A stretch of DNA of 64,000 nucleotides, taken from sequence record PP328843.1; one strand, 5' to 3'. The notes beneath the pieces were generated by a model. The model had not been told where the DNA came from. It worked only from the letters and a program-made list of their open reading frames with translations, and made no database searches. The translations under genes and the position numbers were made by a program. Of the stretch, positions 2,554-39,086 are shown piece after piece (the first letter of the stretch is position 1; each line of letters starts with the position of its first letter). Origin of the DNA: Escherichia phage 215Ecol030PP.

Positions 2554-3837
2554 ATGGCTAAAATCAACGAACTTCTGCGCGAATCAACCACAACGAATAG
2601 CAACTCAATCGGTCGCCCAAATCTCGTTGCTTTGACTCGCGCTACCACTAAATTAATATATTCTGACATTGTAGCAACGCAAAGAACTAATCAACCTGTT
2701 GCTGCTTTTTATGGTATCAAATACCTTAACCCAGACAATGAATTTACATTTAAAACTGGTGCTACTTACGCTGGCGAAGCCGGATATGTAGACCGAGAAC
2801 AAATCACAGAATTAACAGAAGAGTCTAAATTAACTCTCAATAAAGGCGATTTATTCAAATATAATAATATCGTTTATAAAGTATTAGAAGATACACCATT
2901 TGCTGATATTGAAGAAAGCGATTTAGAATTAGCTCTTCAGATTGCAATCGTTCTTTTAAAGGTTCGTCTATTTTCTGATGCTGCAGTAACAAGCAAATTT
3001 GAAAACTCTGATAGCGAAATTGCGGATGCTAGATTCCAGATTAATAAATGGCAAACCGCAGTTAAATCTCGTAAACTTAAAACTGGCATCACAGTTGAAT
3101 TAGCACAAGATTTAGAAGCAAACGGATTCGATGCTCCTAATTTCTTGGAAGATTTGCTTGCAACTGAAATGGCGGATGAAATCAATAAAGATATTCTGCA
3201 GTCTTTGATTACAGTATCAAAACGCTATAAAGTTACAGGAATTACTGATACTGGATTCATTGATTTGAGTTATGCATCTGCACCTGAAGCTGGTCGTTCA
3301 TTATACCGAATGGTATGTGAAATGGTTTCACATATCCAGAAAGAATCAACTTATACAGCAACGTTCTGTGTTGCTTCAGCTCGTGCCGCTGCGATTCTTG
3401 CTGCATCAGGTTGGTTAAAACATAAACCAGAAGATGACAAATATCTTTCACAAAATGCCTACGGGTTCTTAGCTAATGGTTTACCGCTTTATTGCGATAC
3501 CAACAGTCCATTAGATTATGTAATCGTTGGCGTAGTAGAAAATATTGGTGAAAAAGAAATTGTTGGATCAATTTTCTATGCTCCGTATACAGAAGGTCTT
3601 GACTTAGATGACCCTGAACATGTAGGTGCATTTAAAGTTGTAGTTGATCCAGAAAGTTTGCAGCCATCTATCGGTTTATTAGTTAGATATGCTTTATCTG
3701 CAAATCCTTACACTGTAGCAAAAGATGAAAAAGAAGCAAGAATAATTGATGGTGGAGACATGGATAAAATGGCGGGTCGTTCAGATTTGTCTGTTTTATT
3801 AGGTGTTAAGCTACCAAAAATTATTGTTGATGAATAA
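2554..3837 (+). CDS. 24: Capsid vertex protein gp24
   Basis: 427 aa, paralogous to gp23 in the ORF translation; T4 gp24 length and position. Confidence 0.92.
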   Translation: MAKINELLRESTTTNSNSIGRPNLVALTRATTKLIYSDIVATQRTNQPVAAFYGIKYLNPDNEFTFKTGATYAGEAGYVDREQITELTEESKLTLNKGDLFKYNNIVYKVLEDTPFADIEESDLELALQIAIVLLKVRLFSDAAVTSKFENSDSEIADARFQINKWQTAVKSRKLKTGITVELAQDLEANGFDAPNFLEDLLATEMADEINKDILQSLITVSKRYKVTGITDTGFIDLSYASAPEAGRSLYRMVCEMVSHIQKESTYTATFCVASARAAAILAASGWLKHKPEDDKYLSQNAYGFLANGLPLYCDTNSPLDYVIVGVVENIGEKEIVGSIFYAPYTEGLDLDDPEHVGAFKVVVDPESLQPSIGLLVRYALSANPYTVAKDEKEARIIDGGDMDKMAGRSDLSVLLGVKLPKIIVDE

Positions 3838-3843
3838 AACAAA

Positions 3844-3859
3844 GGGACCTTTCGGTCCC
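3844..3859. terminator. Hairpin between convergent genes 24 and rnlB (likely bidirectional terminator)
   Basis: GGGACC..GGTCCC inverted repeat flanked by A-run and T-run. Confidence 0.5.
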
Positions 3860-3866
3860 TTTTTAT

Positions 3867-4871
3867 TTAGCTCACCAATTCAATCCAAGCCGGACGAAGT
3901 ACATCTTGCACCATTTTAACTAATTCCTTTTTAATCAAAGAAGGATTATCTGCTTGAGTTAAAGTAATACCTTCACGAGAAGTTTCTTCCAAAATATCTT
4001 GAACAGTTAGTCCCATCACCTTTCCAAAATCTTTAGGACCAATTTCACCAATTTTAGAAATAACGTTATTTACTCGGTTCAGTGTAACGTAACAAGCTAA
4101 AATTCCAACCAATTTGTTATCAGCTTCTGACAGTTCAACTTTAGCTTTAATAGGCTTATCAGACTTTTTCTTTTCACTAAATTTAGAGTTCTTGCATTTG
4201 ATAGCTACGCGATTGCCATTAGGCATCCAAGAAGGATAACAAGGTTTCAATACATATCCTTCAGCGGTAAATACTTCGCCTTTTACTTCAGCATTCCAAA
4301 CGCATTTATTTGCATCAACTAATCCAGCATGGTCTACCGTAAAATTATAATCCTGGACGACAGAATCTAAATCATTTGGCAATTTAATAAGTTCTTCAAA
4401 TTTACCGCGACCTAAAAGTGGAGCCATTTTAAATTTAAATGTATTGCAGAATGATTCCATCATATAATCATCGACATAAGTCACATCACCACTTTCTGTA
4501 GTAACAATAATGTCAAATACATAAAAATCTTTATCGCCATAATCGACATTCTTCTGAATGCCAGGTCCAGCGAATTCGCCAAAAACTTGATAAGATACAA
4601 CCGCTGAAGTTTCCATAATATCTTGTACTGCTTTAATGGAATCAGCGTAATTCTTCAAAATAATTTCATACCCAAAGAAATCTTCAGCAGGAAGAATAGG
4701 ACCAGTACGTTTAGCACAAGTTGCTTTATCGCGTTCAATAATCAGTGAGAAATTTGTGCCATGAATCTTTTCACGAGCTACCCATTCGCCGCCAGTCAAT
4801 CCTAAACTATAAAGTTTTTCAATGAATTTAGAATTGTAATGATTTTCAAGACTGCTATACTTTTTAAACAT
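3867..4871 (-). CDS. rnlB: RNA ligase 2 (Rnl2)
   Basis: 334 aa; sequence recognised as T4 Rnl2 including the nucleotidyltransferase lysine motif (EKIHGTN). Confidence 0.92.
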
Positions 4872-31563: not shown

Positions 31564-33151
<1,588 letters not shown>

Positions 33152-33178
33152 AATAAAATGGGCCTTGCGGCCCACTCC

Positions 33179-33681
33179 TTAAAAGTATTTTTTAAAACTC
33201 ATCATAACTTTATCATCAACATCATTATCAATCTGTGCAACAAGGTAAGATGACAATTCTACTTCTTGTGGCGCAGATTGAACATTATCAGAATTAAGAT
33301 ATTCACGAATCCAAGGATATGGATGTTTAACCGGAGCATCGGTAATTGGGCATGGAAGACCACACTGCTTCATACGAGATACAGTTAAGTAATCAATAAA
33401 GCTCCACATGCTATTTGTATTTAATCCAGGAACATCTCCATCTTTAAATAAATGAACTGCCCAATCTTTTTCTTGGCGGTTAACTTCCATGAAAATATCA
33501 ACTGCTTCTTGTTCACACTCTTGAGCAATTTTAACCCATTGATCGCCATCAGTACCAGATTGAAGTTGACGAATAATATATTGGGTGCCTTTAAGGTGAA
33601 GCTGTTCATCGCGTGCAATGAACTTCATAATCTTGGCATTACCTTCCATGATTTCCATATTCTTATGGAAGTTAAAGGTAC
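33179..33681 (-). CDS. nrdB: Ribonucleotide reductase small subunit NrdB, exon 2
   Basis: Encodes (C)TFNFHKNMEIMEGNAKIMKFIARDEQLHL... through the C-terminus; class Ia R2 homology; splice position inferred, uncertain by a few nt. Confidence 0.75.
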
Positions 33682-34272
33682 CGTATGTTCGATTGAGCTC
33701 GCTAATTCTCAACCCGTTCTCTTATGAACTGCTGCATGTTACCATGCAGTCCAGACTATATCACAATCCCGGAGGGATTCTCCCCATTTCGAGTCGCTTG
33801 ACCCTACGTCCGAAGACTAGTCGTTGAACCTTGTTTTGCAATTGTCGCCGTGCCATCGTTTATATGTTGATGGTGATAAATCTTTCTTATCACAATATGG
33901 ACAATTCAATTGAATTCTATTTGGATTTAATTTACATCTGTCATTATGTTTTAGATAAAATCCAGGACCTTTACCAATGTGACCGCAGAAATCACATGTG
34001 ATTTCTTTTTGTGCAGGATGGGTCCCGTTCTTAACCATTTCTAATGTTTTGCTGATGTTCTTTTCTTATGGTCTTCCATCAGAATCTTTAGGTATAGGTC
34101 CGTTAGCATCTATCCAAATTTTTCTATAGTTCAATTGTGCATCCTCTTAAAAGTATAATCATATTATACTAATTAAAGGTGCAAGCAAAACCTTGGCTGC
34201 TAGTTTTCCATAAAGGACTTTCCAGCAATTAAAGGAGTTTTCGATAAACGTTACCGTTTAAAGGCGCATTTT
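33682..34272 (-). mobile_element. Group I self-splicing intron in nrdB (about 591 nt) carrying a short remnant homing-endonuclease-like ORF
   Basis: The nrdB reading frame is interrupted by about 0.6 kb between codons ...FYVSFA and CTFNFH...; exon 1 ends in U and the intron ends in G at the inferred junctions; T4 nrdB is known to carry a group I intron at this location. Confidence 0.7.
33817..34038 (-). CDS. Intron-encoded Cys-rich zinc-finger-like ORF (likely truncated I-TevIII-type homing endonuclease remnant)
   Basis: 73 aa with CxxCxH...C and CxxC...H..C patterns; too short for an intact HNH endonuclease. Confidence 0.5.
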   Translation of the reverse strand: MVKNGTHPAQKEITCDFCGHIGKGPGFYLKHNDRCKLNPNRIQLNCPYCDKKDLSPSTYKRWHGDNCKTRFND

Positions 34273-34948
34273 ACGCAAAAGATACATAAAAACGAATAGC
34301 TTCTAAGGCATTAATAACGTGCAAACAGAGGTAAAGAGATTTCATTAAAGCACGTTTAGCTTCGGCTTCTTGTTTAATAGCTCGGTTTAAACGAAAGACG
34401 GCATCAGGAGATTCTTTAGCTAGTTCTACAAATTCTTTAGCATTTTCCCATTCACGGGTTTTAATCAGAACATCATCATAATAACGTCCAATTGATTCAG
34501 CACGTTTCATAATAGCTTCATCTAATACAATCTCATCAAATACCTTCGATGGATCAGTATAAAGATTTCGCATGATATGAGTATATGAACGACTGTGAAT
34601 AGTTTCACTAAAAGTCCATGTAGCAACCCATGTATCAAGACTTGGGTCTGAAATTAATGACATAAGTACAGCAGACGGTGCACGGCCCTGAATGCTATCC
34701 AAAAGTGATTGATACTTCAGATTATTAGTAAAAATATCTTGCTGATATTGAGGAAGCTTATTAAACTGTGCAGCATCCATCATTAAGTTAACTTCTTCGG
34801 GACGCCAGAAAAAACTGATCTGCCGCTCAATGAGTTCTTCAAATACTCGATGTCGTTGAATATCATATCGAGCTAAACCTAATCCAGAACCAAAGAACAT
34901 CGGTTCATTCAAAACATCAACAGGGGATGTATTAAAAACTGTACTCAT
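34273..34948 (-). CDS. nrdB: Ribonucleotide reductase small subunit NrdB, exon 1
   Basis: 225 codons MSTVFNTSPVDVL...ALEAIRFYVSFA; class Ia R2 homology. Confidence 0.8.
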
Positions 34949-34999
34949 AAATTTTCCTCTTAGTTAATAGTTAGTGACTCGTCCATGAGTCATATTATA

Positions 35000-37264
35000 T
35001 CATAATTTACAGGATGAACAATCTTCAGCTTTTGGAGTTTCTATTTCATAATCATCAGTACCAGAACCATCACGGGTATTATGATAATAGAAATTTTTAA
35101 TGCCATAATACCATCCGTATAGCATGTCATCAATCATTATTGACATTGGAACCTTGCCTTTAGGGAAGATTTGGGGGTCATAGTATGTATTCGCCGAAGC
35201 TGATTGACAAACCCATTTCAGCATAATAGCTACCTGCGTAAGATAAGGTTTATTACCTTTCTTAGCTAATTTCCATGTATAATCATAGAGGTCTATGTTA
35301 TGCTCAATATTGGGCACGACTTGATTAAAGGAGCCCTCTTTTGATTCTTTAACAGAGACTGGTCCACGTGGAGGCTCGATACCGTTTGTACTGTTAGAAA
35401 CTTGGGAAGATGACTCACATGGCATAAGTGCTGATAATGTGCTATTACGGATGCCAAAGAGCTTAAGGTCTTCCCGCAGCGCCGACCAGTCACAAACGTA
35501 TTTTGGAGCTGCGATTTGGTCAATCTTTTTATTGTACCAGTCGATAGGTAGTTCGCCTCGAGACCAACGAGTGTCTGAATAATATTCGCAAGGTCCTTTT
35601 TCTTTGGCGAGCTTAATGGATGCTTTAATGAGTCCATACTGTAATCTCTCAAATAGTTCATGTGTTAAATCGTTAGCATCTTCATAAGAAGCAAAGTTAC
35701 TTGCCAGCCAAGCTGCATAGTTAGTAACACCTACACCGAGGTTACGACGCTTTTTAGCTTTTTCTGCTTCAGGAACTGGATATCCTTGGTAATCCAACAG
35801 ATTATCAAGAGCACGAACTTGAACTTCTGCCAATTCATTAATTTTATCTTGGTCTTGCCAGTCAAAATTATCTAGTACGAATGCGCTAAGGGTACACAAT
35901 CCAATTTCAGCATCAGGGCTATTCACATCATTTGTTGGAATAGCAATTTCACAACACAAGTTACTCTGACGAATAGGTGCCTTTTCACGAATAAACGGAG
36001 TATAGTTATTCGTATTATCAATGAACTGTACATAAATCCTTGCTGTTCCTGAACGTTCAGTCATGAGCAATTCAAATAGTTCACGGGCTTTAATACGCTT
36101 TTTACGAATATTAGGGTCTTTTTCTGCTGCTTCGTATAATTCACGGAAACGGTCTTGGTCTTTAAAATAAGAATAATAAAGCTCTCCACCCATTTCATGT
36201 GGACTGAACAAAGTAATGTAATCGTTCTTTCCAAATCGTTCCATCATCAAATCATTCAACTGAACACCATAATCCATATGACGGATGCGGTTTTCTTCTA
36301 CGCCTTTGTTATTTTTCAAAACGAGAAGATTTTCAACTTCCAAATGCCAAATAGGATAATAAGCAGTAGCAGCGCCGCCACGAATTCCACCCTGTGAACA
36401 TGATTTAACTGCAGTCTGAAAATGTTTCCAAAAAGGAATAACACCAGTATGGCGTACTTCACCTGTGCCAATCTTAGAACCTTCAGCACGAATCATACCA
36501 ACGTTAATACCAATTCCAGCGCGTTTAGAGATATATTCAACAATTGAAGCAGAAGCCTTATTGATAGACTTCAGTGAATCGCCTGCCTCAATAACAACGC
36601 ATGAACTAAACTGCCGAGTTGGAGTACGGCAACCAGCCATAATAGGAGTTGGTAATGAAATCTGTCGAGTAGATACCGCTTCATAAAAACGGATAACATG
36701 TTTTAATCTATCAACAGGTTCATCTTGATGCAATGCCATTCCAATAGTCATAAATGCAAACTGTGGAGTTTCATAAATTTGACCAGTGGTTTTATCTTTA
36801 ACTAGATATTTTTCTTTTAATTGCATCGCCCCGGAATAAGTAAATTCCATATCCCGCTCGTGCTTAATTTTTGATTCTAAAAATGTAATTTCTTCTGCTG
36901 AATATTTTGACAATAATTCAGGGTCATATTTACCTTCATTTACACAGTAAGAAATATGGTCAATAAATGAACGTGGTTCATATTGTCCGTAAACATGCTT
37001 ACGAAGAGCAAACATTAAACAGCGTGCAGCTACATATTGATAATCAGGCTCTTCAACCGAAATAGAATTCGCAGCAGCCTTAATGACAATAGTCTGAATA
37101 TCATCAGTTGTCATTCCATCACGGAGATAAGATTTAATATTTTCATATAATTCATAAGGATCTACTGATGTTCCCTCAGCTGCCCAAGATAAAACTTTAA
37201 TAATTTTTTGTGGGTCAAAGCTCTGAGAAACACCACTACTTTTGATAACATTAATTAATTGCAT
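35000..37264 (-). CDS. nrdA: Ribonucleotide reductase large subunit NrdA
   Basis: 754 aa; class Ia R1 with ATP-cone N-terminus; T4 NrdA length. Confidence 0.95.
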   Translation of the reverse strand: MQLINVIKSSGVSQSFDPQKIIKVLSWAAEGTSVDPYELYENIKSYLRDGMTTDDIQTIVIKAAANSISVEEPDYQYVAARCLMFALRKHVYGQYEPRSFIDHISYCVNEGKYDPELLSKYSAEEITFLESKIKHERDMEFTYSGAMQLKEKYLVKDKTTGQIYETPQFAFMTIGMALHQDEPVDRLKHVIRFYEAVSTRQISLPTPIMAGCRTPTRQFSSCVVIEAGDSLKSINKASASIVEYISKRAGIGINVGMIRAEGSKIGTGEVRHTGVIPFWKHFQTAVKSCSQGGIRGGAATAYYPIWHLEVENLLVLKNNKGVEENRIRHMDYGVQLNDLMMERFGKNDYITLFSPHEMGGELYYSYFKDQDRFRELYEAAEKDPNIRKKRIKARELFELLMTERSGTARIYVQFIDNTNNYTPFIREKAPIRQSNLCCEIAIPTNDVNSPDAEIGLCTLSAFVLDNFDWQDQDKINELAEVQVRALDNLLDYQGYPVPEAEKAKKRRNLGVGVTNYAAWLASNFASYEDANDLTHELFERLQYGLIKASIKLAKEKGPCEYYSDTRWSRGELPIDWYNKKIDQIAAPKYVCDWSALREDLKLFGIRNSTLSALMPCESSSQVSNSTNGIEPPRGPVSVKESKEGSFNQVVPNIEHNIDLYDYTWKLAKKGNKPYLTQVAIMLKWVCQSASANTYYDPQIFPKGKVPMSIMIDDMLYGWYYGIKNFYYHNTRDGSGTDDYEIETPKAEDCSSCKL

Positions 37265-38134: not shown

Positions 38135-38396
38135 CATTATGTTCAGATAAGGTCGTTAATCTTATCCCGGAATTATATCCAGCTGCATGTCACCATGCAG
38201 AGCAGACTATATCTCCAACTTGTTAAAGCAAGTTGTCTATCGTTTCGAGTCACTTGACCCTACTCCCTAAAGGGATAGTCGTTAGGCATTTAGGTAGAAC
38301 CAAAGTCCTACAATTTAGCACGGGATTGTCTACTAGAGAGGTTCCCCGTTTAGATAGATTACAAGTATAAGTCACCTTATACTCAGGCCTCAATTA
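38135..38396 (-). mobile_element. Group I self-splicing intron in td, ORF-less (262 nt)
   Basis: The intron begins UAAUUGAGGCCUGAGUAUAAGGUGACUUAUAC... and ends ...CUGAACAUAAUG, which I recognise as the T4 td intron core; no I-TevI ORF is present. Confidence 0.8.
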
Positions 38397-39086
38397 ACCC
38401 AAGAAAACATCTACTGAGCGTTGATACCACTGCAAATCCAAATAGCCATTACGCACATTAAACTGATAGAACATATGACAAGGCGGTAATGCCATATATT
38501 TAAGTTCAGCTGGATTCCATGCAGAAACAATTTGACGCCTATCATTTGGCAATTTTTTAATACGATCAATAACTTCTACAATTTGGTCTACACCGCCAAA
38601 ATCACGCCATTGTTTTCCATAAATTGGACCAAGTTCACCGCTATGGTATCCTAAATCTTTTGCTTGATTTTCGTAATTTTCATCCCAGACTGTTTTGCCT
38701 TGAATTAATGAATCATGCTGAATTTGGTCTACACCGCCAAAATCACGCCATTGTTTTCCATAAATTGGACCAAGTTCACCGCTATGGTATCCTAAATCTT
38801 TTGCTTGATTTTCGTAATTTTCATCCCAGACTGTTTTGCCTTGAATTAATGAATCATGCTGAATTAATCGTAAATCATTTACGTTAGTACTTCCTGATAA
38901 GAACCAAAGTAGCTCAGCAATGCAAGCTTTCCAAGCGAGCTTCTTAGTTGTTACCGCAGGAAAACCTTTAGTTAAATCCCAGCGTAATTTAGTACCGAAC
39001 AAAGCAATTGTTCCTGTGCCTGTTCGGTCATCGGTTTCATAGCCATTTTCAAAAATGTCTTTAATTAAATCTTGGTATTGTTTCAT
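38397..39086 (-). CDS. td: Thymidylate synthase, exon 1 (contains an in-frame 47-codon tandem duplication)
   Basis: MKQYQDLIKDIFENGYETDDRTGTGT... with catalytic ALPPCHMF; the segment QHDSLIQ...GGVDQI occurs twice in a row. Confidence 0.88.
38580..38861. repeat. Perfect direct tandem duplication, 2 x 141 bp, inside td exon 1
   Basis: Positions 38580-38720 and 38721-38861 are identical by eye; junction microhomology ATT. Confidence 0.9.

Follow-up and report, generated by a model that had tools for sequence, protein, structure and literature searches.

Gene order in the window, by which we mean the whole 64,000-nt stretch of DNA that was analysed, is nrdA (35000-37264), a 51-nt gap (34949-34999), nrdB, denA (32741-33175) and rnlA (31564-32724), all on the minus strand. 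The nrdB gene is divided into two exons by an intron, as follows:

34273-34948, minus strand: nrdB exon 1, with its ATG at 34948 and T34273 as the first base of a split Cys codon (ORF list, splice reconstruction and Pfam Ribonuc_red_sm on the spliced product)
33682-34272, minus strand: nrdB group I intron of 591 nt, 5' AAAAUGCG ... ACAUACG 3', with its terminal G at 33682 (alignment with T4, RB3 and LH2, and intron-less alleles)
33179-33681, minus strand: nrdB exon 2, which starts with the GT of the Cys codon and includes the stop (ORF list, splice reconstruction, Pfam and comparison with T4)

The exon-1 ORF in the ORF list (34271-34948, minus strand) ends in ...EAIRFYVSFA / ...ALEAIRFYVSFA and is then closed by a stop. 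It is followed by about 590 nt without a long in-phase frame, after which comes the exon-2 frame (33179-33712, minus strand), whose in-phase part starts at ...GTFNFHKNMEIMEGNAK and runs to 33179. When T34273 and G33681 were joined in the splice reconstruction, they formed a TGT Cys codon and gave a 392-aa NrdB that reads FYVSFA-C-TFNFHKNMEIMEGNAK. This spliced NrdB has a single continuous match to Pfam Ribonuc_red_sm (residues 33-335, E 1.1e-36), and 366 of the 392 columns in its alignment with T4 NrdB are identical (~93%). Both exons are open and contain no frameshifts or stops relative to T4 NrdB. A preliminary description of this DNA, made from the letters alone, had the NrdB frame break after FYVSFA and resume about 591 nt further on, and our coordinates for the intron, 33682-34272, are identical to those given there.

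That description also allowed for the junction being a few nucleotides off, which it is not. A 240-nt query across the spliced junction was matched in one piece, at ~98% identity, by the intron-less nrdB of RB32, RB33, KMB22 and Ec_O157kw. Since these natural alleles are colinear with the spliced junction, the insertion point is fixed directly to the base and does not depend on the U/G rule alone. The rule does hold, with U as the last base of exon 1 and an omega-G (G33682) closing the intron directly before the 3' exon GUACCUUU. The spliced mRNA is expected to have the junction ...UUUGCGU joined to GUACCUUU, i.e. ...UAUGUAUCUUUUGCGU joined to GUACCUUUAACUUCC. For annotation, nrdB is better entered as one joined CDS (34948..34273 + 33681..33179, minus strand), and an entry as two fragments plus a "homing endonuclease" is to be avoided. 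One patch of exon 1, NrdB residues ~171-196 (34361-34438), is strongly diverged from T4 and 4 aa longer (EFVELAKESPDAVFRLNRAIKQEAEAKRA vs DMVEYYKDQGLILADKDVEQRAKRD). This mosaic block lies a short way upstream of the intron, in a protein that is otherwise nearly identical to T4 NrdB.

Judged by its alignment, the intron is the nrdB group I intron of phage T4, which belongs to subgroup IA. Comparison with the 598-nt T4 intron (NC_000866) found four differing sites, all in the loop that carries the ORF:

after 34166: deletion of 6 nt
34071: C for A, at the deletion junction
34047-34050: run with one A fewer
33985: C for T, synonymous

Because all four differences are inside the ORF loop, the ribozyme core is 100% identical to that of T4. 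It lies in two halves:

34178-34272, minus strand: 5' half of the ribozyme core, with the guide sequence, P2 (AAACG/CGUUU), the P3 5' strand, P4, P5 and the start of P6
33682-33845, minus strand: 3' half of the ribozyme core, with the P6 3' strand, P7, P7.1/P7.2, the P3 3' strand, P8, the P7 3' strand, P9, P9.1, P9.2 and the terminal G

The claim of a group I intron in nrdB is thus upheld by the T4-identical core, and also by matches of both halves to RF00028. In a permissive small search, the 5' half matched model positions 1-134 at 34140-34289 (20.6 bits, E 0.0017) and the 3' part lay within a match at 33732-33972 (35.7 bits, E 3e-07) that is confident from GUUCAACGACUA to the P9 hairpin. 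Neither half alone reaches the RF00028 gathering score of 50 in the window. When the whole window was searched with Rfam at the gathering threshold, only the intron in td was reported and the nrdB intron was not. The split, sub-threshold match is due to the ~340 nt of ORF in the P6 loop and not to absence of a ribozyme. Phage PD112 has a natural ORF-less allele of 304 nt with the same core, and this one passes the gathering score, with 68.6 bits. Rfam matches to rseX and a snoRNA on the opposite strand (E 7.6 and 2.5, respectively) were weak and were dismissed as chance.

The intron was then modelled with its ORF loop cut as in the PD112 allele. The fold recovered group I core helices, namely P2, P4/P5, the P6 extension, P7.1, P7.2, P9, P9.1 and P9.2, and a check of complementarity found the strands of P1, P3, P7 and P8 to be complementary. 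The fold places the hairpins typical of subgroup IA, P7.1 and P7.2 (GUC-UUCG-GAC and GGGUC-AAGC-GACUC), between P7 and the P3 3' strand, and they appear in the Rfam alignment as an insert between model positions 148 and 149. P9 reads CUGCAUG-GUAA-CAUGCAG, and T4-type and RB3-type alleles differ in it by a compensatory change from G-C to A-U. In P1, the guide GCGC (intron positions 6-9) pairs with exon GCGU and places a U-G pair at the splice site; this helix is T4-identical, and as drawn by hand it is only 4 bp long. The T4 td and nrdD introns, with I-TevI and I-TevII, are likewise of group IA, sit in nucleotide-metabolism genes and carry their ORF in a peripheral loop. I-TevI and I-TevII are of the GIY-YIG family and are active in T4. 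Self-splicing of the T4 nrdB intron is established (reviewed in PMC2988022 and PMC1865063). Given the identity of the two cores, the window intron should splice as T4's does, in a guanosine-dependent manner.

The loop in P6 holds what is left of an endonuclease gene:

34066-34134, minus strand: N-terminal stump of I-TevIII, with a TTG start, LNYRKIWIDANGPIPKDSDG followed by RP, and then TAA; 22 codons plus stop (intron frame translation)
34072-34076, minus strand: deletion junction, a GAAGA microhomology (alignments)
33817-34038, minus strand: 73-aa remnant ORF (I-TevIII residues 197-269), which extends into the ribozyme core by its last ~9 codons
33934-33996, minus strand: zinc finger 1, C15-x2-C18...H31-x3-C35
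33838-33903, minus strand: zinc finger 2, C46-x2-C49...H63-x3-C67

The 73-aa ORF had been described beforehand as carrying two zinc-finger-like motifs, lacking an HNH domain and being consistent with a truncated I-TevIII-type endonuclease, and all three points held. The ORF is present in the ORF list and both motifs were located; they are of the CX2C-X12/13-H-X3-C type and match C211/C214 and C242/C245 of I-TevIII. A profile search had been suggested as a check, and in PHROGs the ORF matched over its full length to two families, phrog_12324 (269-aa I-TevIII, residues 197-269, E 9.7e-51) and phrog_27406 (defective T4 form, residues 25-97, E 4.6e-52). Pfam gave only sub-threshold zinc-ribbon noise on the ORF (best E 0.033) and, therefore, the identification is based on the PHROG matches (E ~1e-50) and on direct alignment with I-TevIII of phage RB3, from which the ORF differs by one residue (T/A).

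RB3 shares the intron and its insertion site, and its intron is 1091 nt long, encodes an intact 269-aa I-TevIII with an H-N-H domain and two zinc fingers, and is mobile (PMC1865063). In RB3 I-TevIII, Pfam HNH_3 covers residues 4-48. Neither Pfam nor PHROG detected an H-N-H motif in the 73-aa ORF, and the HNH_3 region is reduced in the window to the separate stump, whose first 20 residues are identical to those of RB3 I-TevIII, where they make up the first part of the HNH_3 match. Missing from the window are ~494 nt of coding sequence that RB3 retains, which comprise the H-N-H motif and the linker (roughly residues 21-183 of I-TevIII). The missing segment falls between ...GATTCTGATG and GAAGACCATAAG..., with its breakpoint in the short repeat GAAGA(A/C)CA, and the stump ends in a stop at this junction.

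DNA binding by I-TevIII requires its two fingers, which do bind zinc (Robbins et al. 2007, PMC1865063). The minimal fragment that binds and shifts DNA is 166C (residues 166-269), whereas the 194C fragment (residues 194-269) resists protease, takes up two zinc ions and forms dimers, but does not shift homing-site DNA (PMC1865063). The minimal DNA-binding domain is incomplete in the window, where the ORF covers residues 197-269 only. Since the remnant corresponds to 194C, by analogy it is a zinc-finger and dimerisation module and less than a complete DNA-binding domain.

By alignment, the truncation is the internal deletion already described for T4, whose version is a deletion mutant (Eddy and Gold 1991, as cited in PMC2790892 and PMC2988022). 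The 1986 entry for the T4 nrdB intron, X04140, lists a 97-aa URF. T4 and nine other phages have the same breakpoint, among them LH2, FL18, F26, G8, FL12, ESh36, Lv5cm and Manna. T4 (NC_000866 T4p230/T4p231; X04140) shares with the window the gene, the insertion site, the core, the deletion at the GAAGA junction and the zinc-finger C-terminus. It differs in having an intron of 598 nt with a 97-aa ORF, the late-promoter sequence TATAAATA and an A at the junction, whereas the window intron has 591 nt, 73 aa, no TATAAATA and a C at the junction.

A search with a 951-nt region matched 724 phage records, ~118 of which contain the whole intron region. The intron-bearing records are ~97-98% identical among the matches listed, and they come from T4-like phages of Escherichia, Shigella, Salmonella and Yersinia. 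The 20-kb stretch around the intron is ~95-96% identical to SHFML-11, RB3 and others, which makes the window a T4-like phage that is identical to no record in the collection. On this basis, the source phage is classed as Tequatrovirus-like. At this one site, public genomes contain the full series of forms: intact introns of ~1085-1091 nt, T4-type deletions of 587-599 nt, the ORF-less form of 304 nt and intron-less genes. The ORF-less form is found in vB_vPM_PD112 and CE1, which have the same intron, insertion site and core but neither an ORF nor the zinc-finger remnant. In PD112 (intron at 1123-1426 in the coordinates of the piece examined), the ORF was lost by a deletion between two ACAATTG repeats, one at the ORF start and one near its end. 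This allele shows all of the ORF region to be dispensable.

The polymorphisms of the window intron are mosaic. The 3' core (33682-33790, P9 CUGCAUG/CAUGCAG) is of the T4 type, unlike that of RB3, which has RB3-type polymorphisms including the compensatory pair in P9. The window also lacks an A at intron position 63 (34209-34210), and this is common to the window and T4 alone. The 6-nt deletion in the hairpin loop and the C at the junction are seen in LH2-type alleles. This mixture suggests recombination among intron alleles.

The junction base could also mean that the deletion in the window had an origin separate from T4's, with slippage recurring at the GAAGA(A/C)CA microhomology. The window and eight other deletion alleles (FL12 is altered further) have the junction GAAGACCAUAAG (GAAGACC), which equals the distal repeat of RB3, whereas the T4 junction GAAGAACAUAAG (GAAGAAC) equals the proximal repeat, so that the crossovers could differ by 1-3 nt. 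The 304-nt allele of PD112, made by a deletion at a different microhomology, shows that such events recur. However, a single A/C point change explains the junction difference equally well, and the missing A shared with T4 alone and the T4-type 3' core, which FL18, LH2 and Manna also have, point to common descent of the element. We consider an independent origin improbable, and the biology would be the same with a shared or an independent deletion.

Apart from the large deletion, the signals for expression of the endonuclease were compared with those of T4. Endonuclease ORFs in T4-type introns are controlled by a late promoter and by a hairpin that sequesters the ribosome-binding site (PMC2988022). 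In the published scheme, late transcripts start inside the hairpin and the ribosome-binding site is thereby freed (PMC2988022). The corresponding hairpin was found in the window:

34143-34179, minus strand: SD-sequestering hairpin at the old I-TevIII start, with the SD AAGAGG at 34144-34149 (fold)

The hairpin has a predicted energy of -9.8 kcal/mol in both the window and T4 versions, with a loop that is 6 nt shorter in the window. The 6 nt deleted from the loop take out the late-promoter sequence, and TATAAATA is absent from either strand of the window intron. With the late promoter gone and the hairpin kept, the ribosome-binding site should stay masked, and the sequestered SD serves only the 22-codon stump. 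The 6-nt deletion was considered as decay specific to dead alleles and this was rejected, since the full-length ESh24 allele carries it too; it is a shared polymorphism.

The run of A at 34047-34050 (minus strand) is one A shorter in the window than in all 12 other alleles compared, which makes it unique among the 13. The resulting frameshift reduces what is a 97-aa ORF in T4, and an 87-aa ORF in LH2-type alleles that starts at an ATG created at the deletion junction, to 73 aa from Met197. Another possible explanation for the shorter run is a homopolymer sequencing error. Other deleted alleles have small indels of their own upstream of Met197, as expected for a pseudogene. Taken at face value, the sequence makes the window allele slightly more decayed than T4's. 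The loss from the A run together with the 494-nt deletion also brings the TTG stump and the zinc-finger ORF into the same reading frame, separated by a single TAA (34066-34068) and 10 wrong-frame codons, which is probably a coincidence. No Shine-Dalgarno sequence was found upstream of the ATG at 34038 (ACAUUAGAAAUG). Since the 73-aa ORF starts at this internal Met197 without such a site, it is best taken as a mechanical ORF that is probably not translated.

A different reading of the remnant is that the zinc-finger and dimerisation module (I-TevIII 197-269) is expressed as a small functional protein and is kept for this reason in every deleted allele. It could act as a dominant-negative partner that poisons the dimeric I-TevIII of a co-infecting phage through dead heterodimers, or it could bind an operator-like site near the old promoter or be a small DNA- or RNA-binding factor that aids the intron. 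The stability, zinc binding and dimerisation of 194C are in keeping with this. Also, the 222-nt zinc-finger stretch is free of frameshifts in 13/13 alleles, its sole indel being an in-frame 12-nt deletion in ESh36, while the ~95 nt upstream of it have about five separate indels, which could hint at residual constraint. Yet the changes in the stretch, counted by eye across the 13 alleles, are about two synonymous and three non-synonymous, as neutrality predicts, and together with the one in-frame deletion they are too few to tell whether purifying selection acts on it. All the alleles are at least ~97% identical, and the conservation may reflect recent ancestry only. The start at 34038 has no Shine-Dalgarno sequence, the late promoter is deleted, and the loop offers a single ribosome-binding site, which is sequestered and belongs to the stump. 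The proposed roles meet further difficulties in that 194C does not bind homing-site DNA (PMC1865063) and an allele containing the intron is already immune to I-TevIII because its homing site is split. A functional fragment is, thus, very unlikely; if it were real, what passes for the decaying pseudogene of a "defunct" endonuclease would instead be a domesticated fragment.

The preferred reading, which we hold with high confidence, is that a T4-like phage carries in nrdB a classical T4-type self-splicing intron with a dead I-TevIII and that the intron is now a stranded, non-homing passenger. The intron RNA would fold into the group I core and, with free guanosine, would cleave behind the last U of exon 1 (34273). 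The exon end released in this way would then attack after the terminal intron G (33682), joining the exons into an mRNA for the 392-aa NrdB. The loop in the P6 region formerly housed the I-TevIII gene, until, as in T4, a deletion of ~494 nt between two GAAGA repeats took away the H-N-H nuclease domain. Only the N-terminal stump of 22 codons and the C-terminal module of zinc fingers and dimerisation were left, and the endonuclease is dead. The allele is more decayed than T4's, with an extra frameshift and without the late promoter, while the ribosome-binding site is still locked in its hairpin. The phage also lacks a neighbour of the mobE type, which mobilises the defunct intron in T4. Clean splicing that does no harm would let the intron persist, as would the need for precise excision if nrdB is to be spared.

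The nrdB gene is dispensable for T4 in many hosts. That the intron no longer splices, leaving nrdB a pseudogene and the phage reliant on the host reductase, is nevertheless hardly credible. Nothing speaks for it directly, though the neighbouring td gene has an odd 141-bp duplication. Against it stand a core that is base-for-base identical to T4, two open exons ~93% identical to T4 NrdB without frameshifts or stops, and the location of all four differences from T4 in a loop that the PD112 allele does without entirely.

Whether a dead intron of this kind can still spread depends in T4 on its neighbour. The defunct T4 intron is inherited at high frequency through trans-homing, in which the neighbouring MobE nicks intron-less nrdB (PMC2790892) and the intron is dragged along. 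T4 has mobE and nrdB.1 between nrdA and nrdB, and RB3 has mobE there. The window has neither of these; its nrdA-nrdB gap measures only 51 nt, similar to those of ESh24 and PD112, and contains no mobE-type or other free-standing endonuclease gene. With its nuclease domain gone, the window intron should be unable to home by itself, and with neither an endonuclease of its own nor an adjacent helper it would be stranded. Homing in cis or in trans is, therefore, predicted to be absent for this intron.

Other phages with the deleted form have a different gene in this slot. The one in LH2 encodes a free-standing homing endonuclease of 522 aa (2914-4482 in the coordinates of the piece examined; phrog_3339, E 9e-151, with a weak match to Pfam REase_MTES_1575). 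Seven other deletion-form phages have a CDS of similar size that ends at the nrdB start; of these proteins, that of LH2 was the one searched. A neighbouring endonuclease of the LH2 type would fit hitch-hiking of the dead intron, as with mobE in T4.

Both the nrdB intron of T4 and the deletion in its I-TevIII gene are already known (Eddy and Gold 1991; Robbins et al. 2007), and the window offers nothing new in kind. The intron and the deletion have been textbook matter since 1986-1991, to which the window adds one allele whose extra decay is trivial. It has modest value as an example of a homing-endonuclease gene decaying after fixation.

The whole td-nrdA-nrdB stretch of the window is without an active endonuclease, with no ORF in the td intron, a dead I-TevIII and no mobE. 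The td group I intron lies at 38135-38396 on the minus strand (RF00028, 65.5 bits at 38183-38406) and has 262 nt without the I-TevI ORF, compared to 1016 nt in T4. An ORF-less td intron is also present in PD112 and CE1, with a one-piece match over 311/311 nt at 97.7% identity. Exon 1 of td (38580-38865, minus strand) contains a perfect 141-bp tandem duplication (2.0 copies, 100% match), and none of the best 25 database relatives has a colinear match to this stretch. It is either a real recent event in a dispensable gene or an assembly artefact. The duplication is in frame and repeats 47 aa (...HDSLIQGKTVWDENYENQAKDLGYHSGELGPIYGKQWRDFGGVDQI...).
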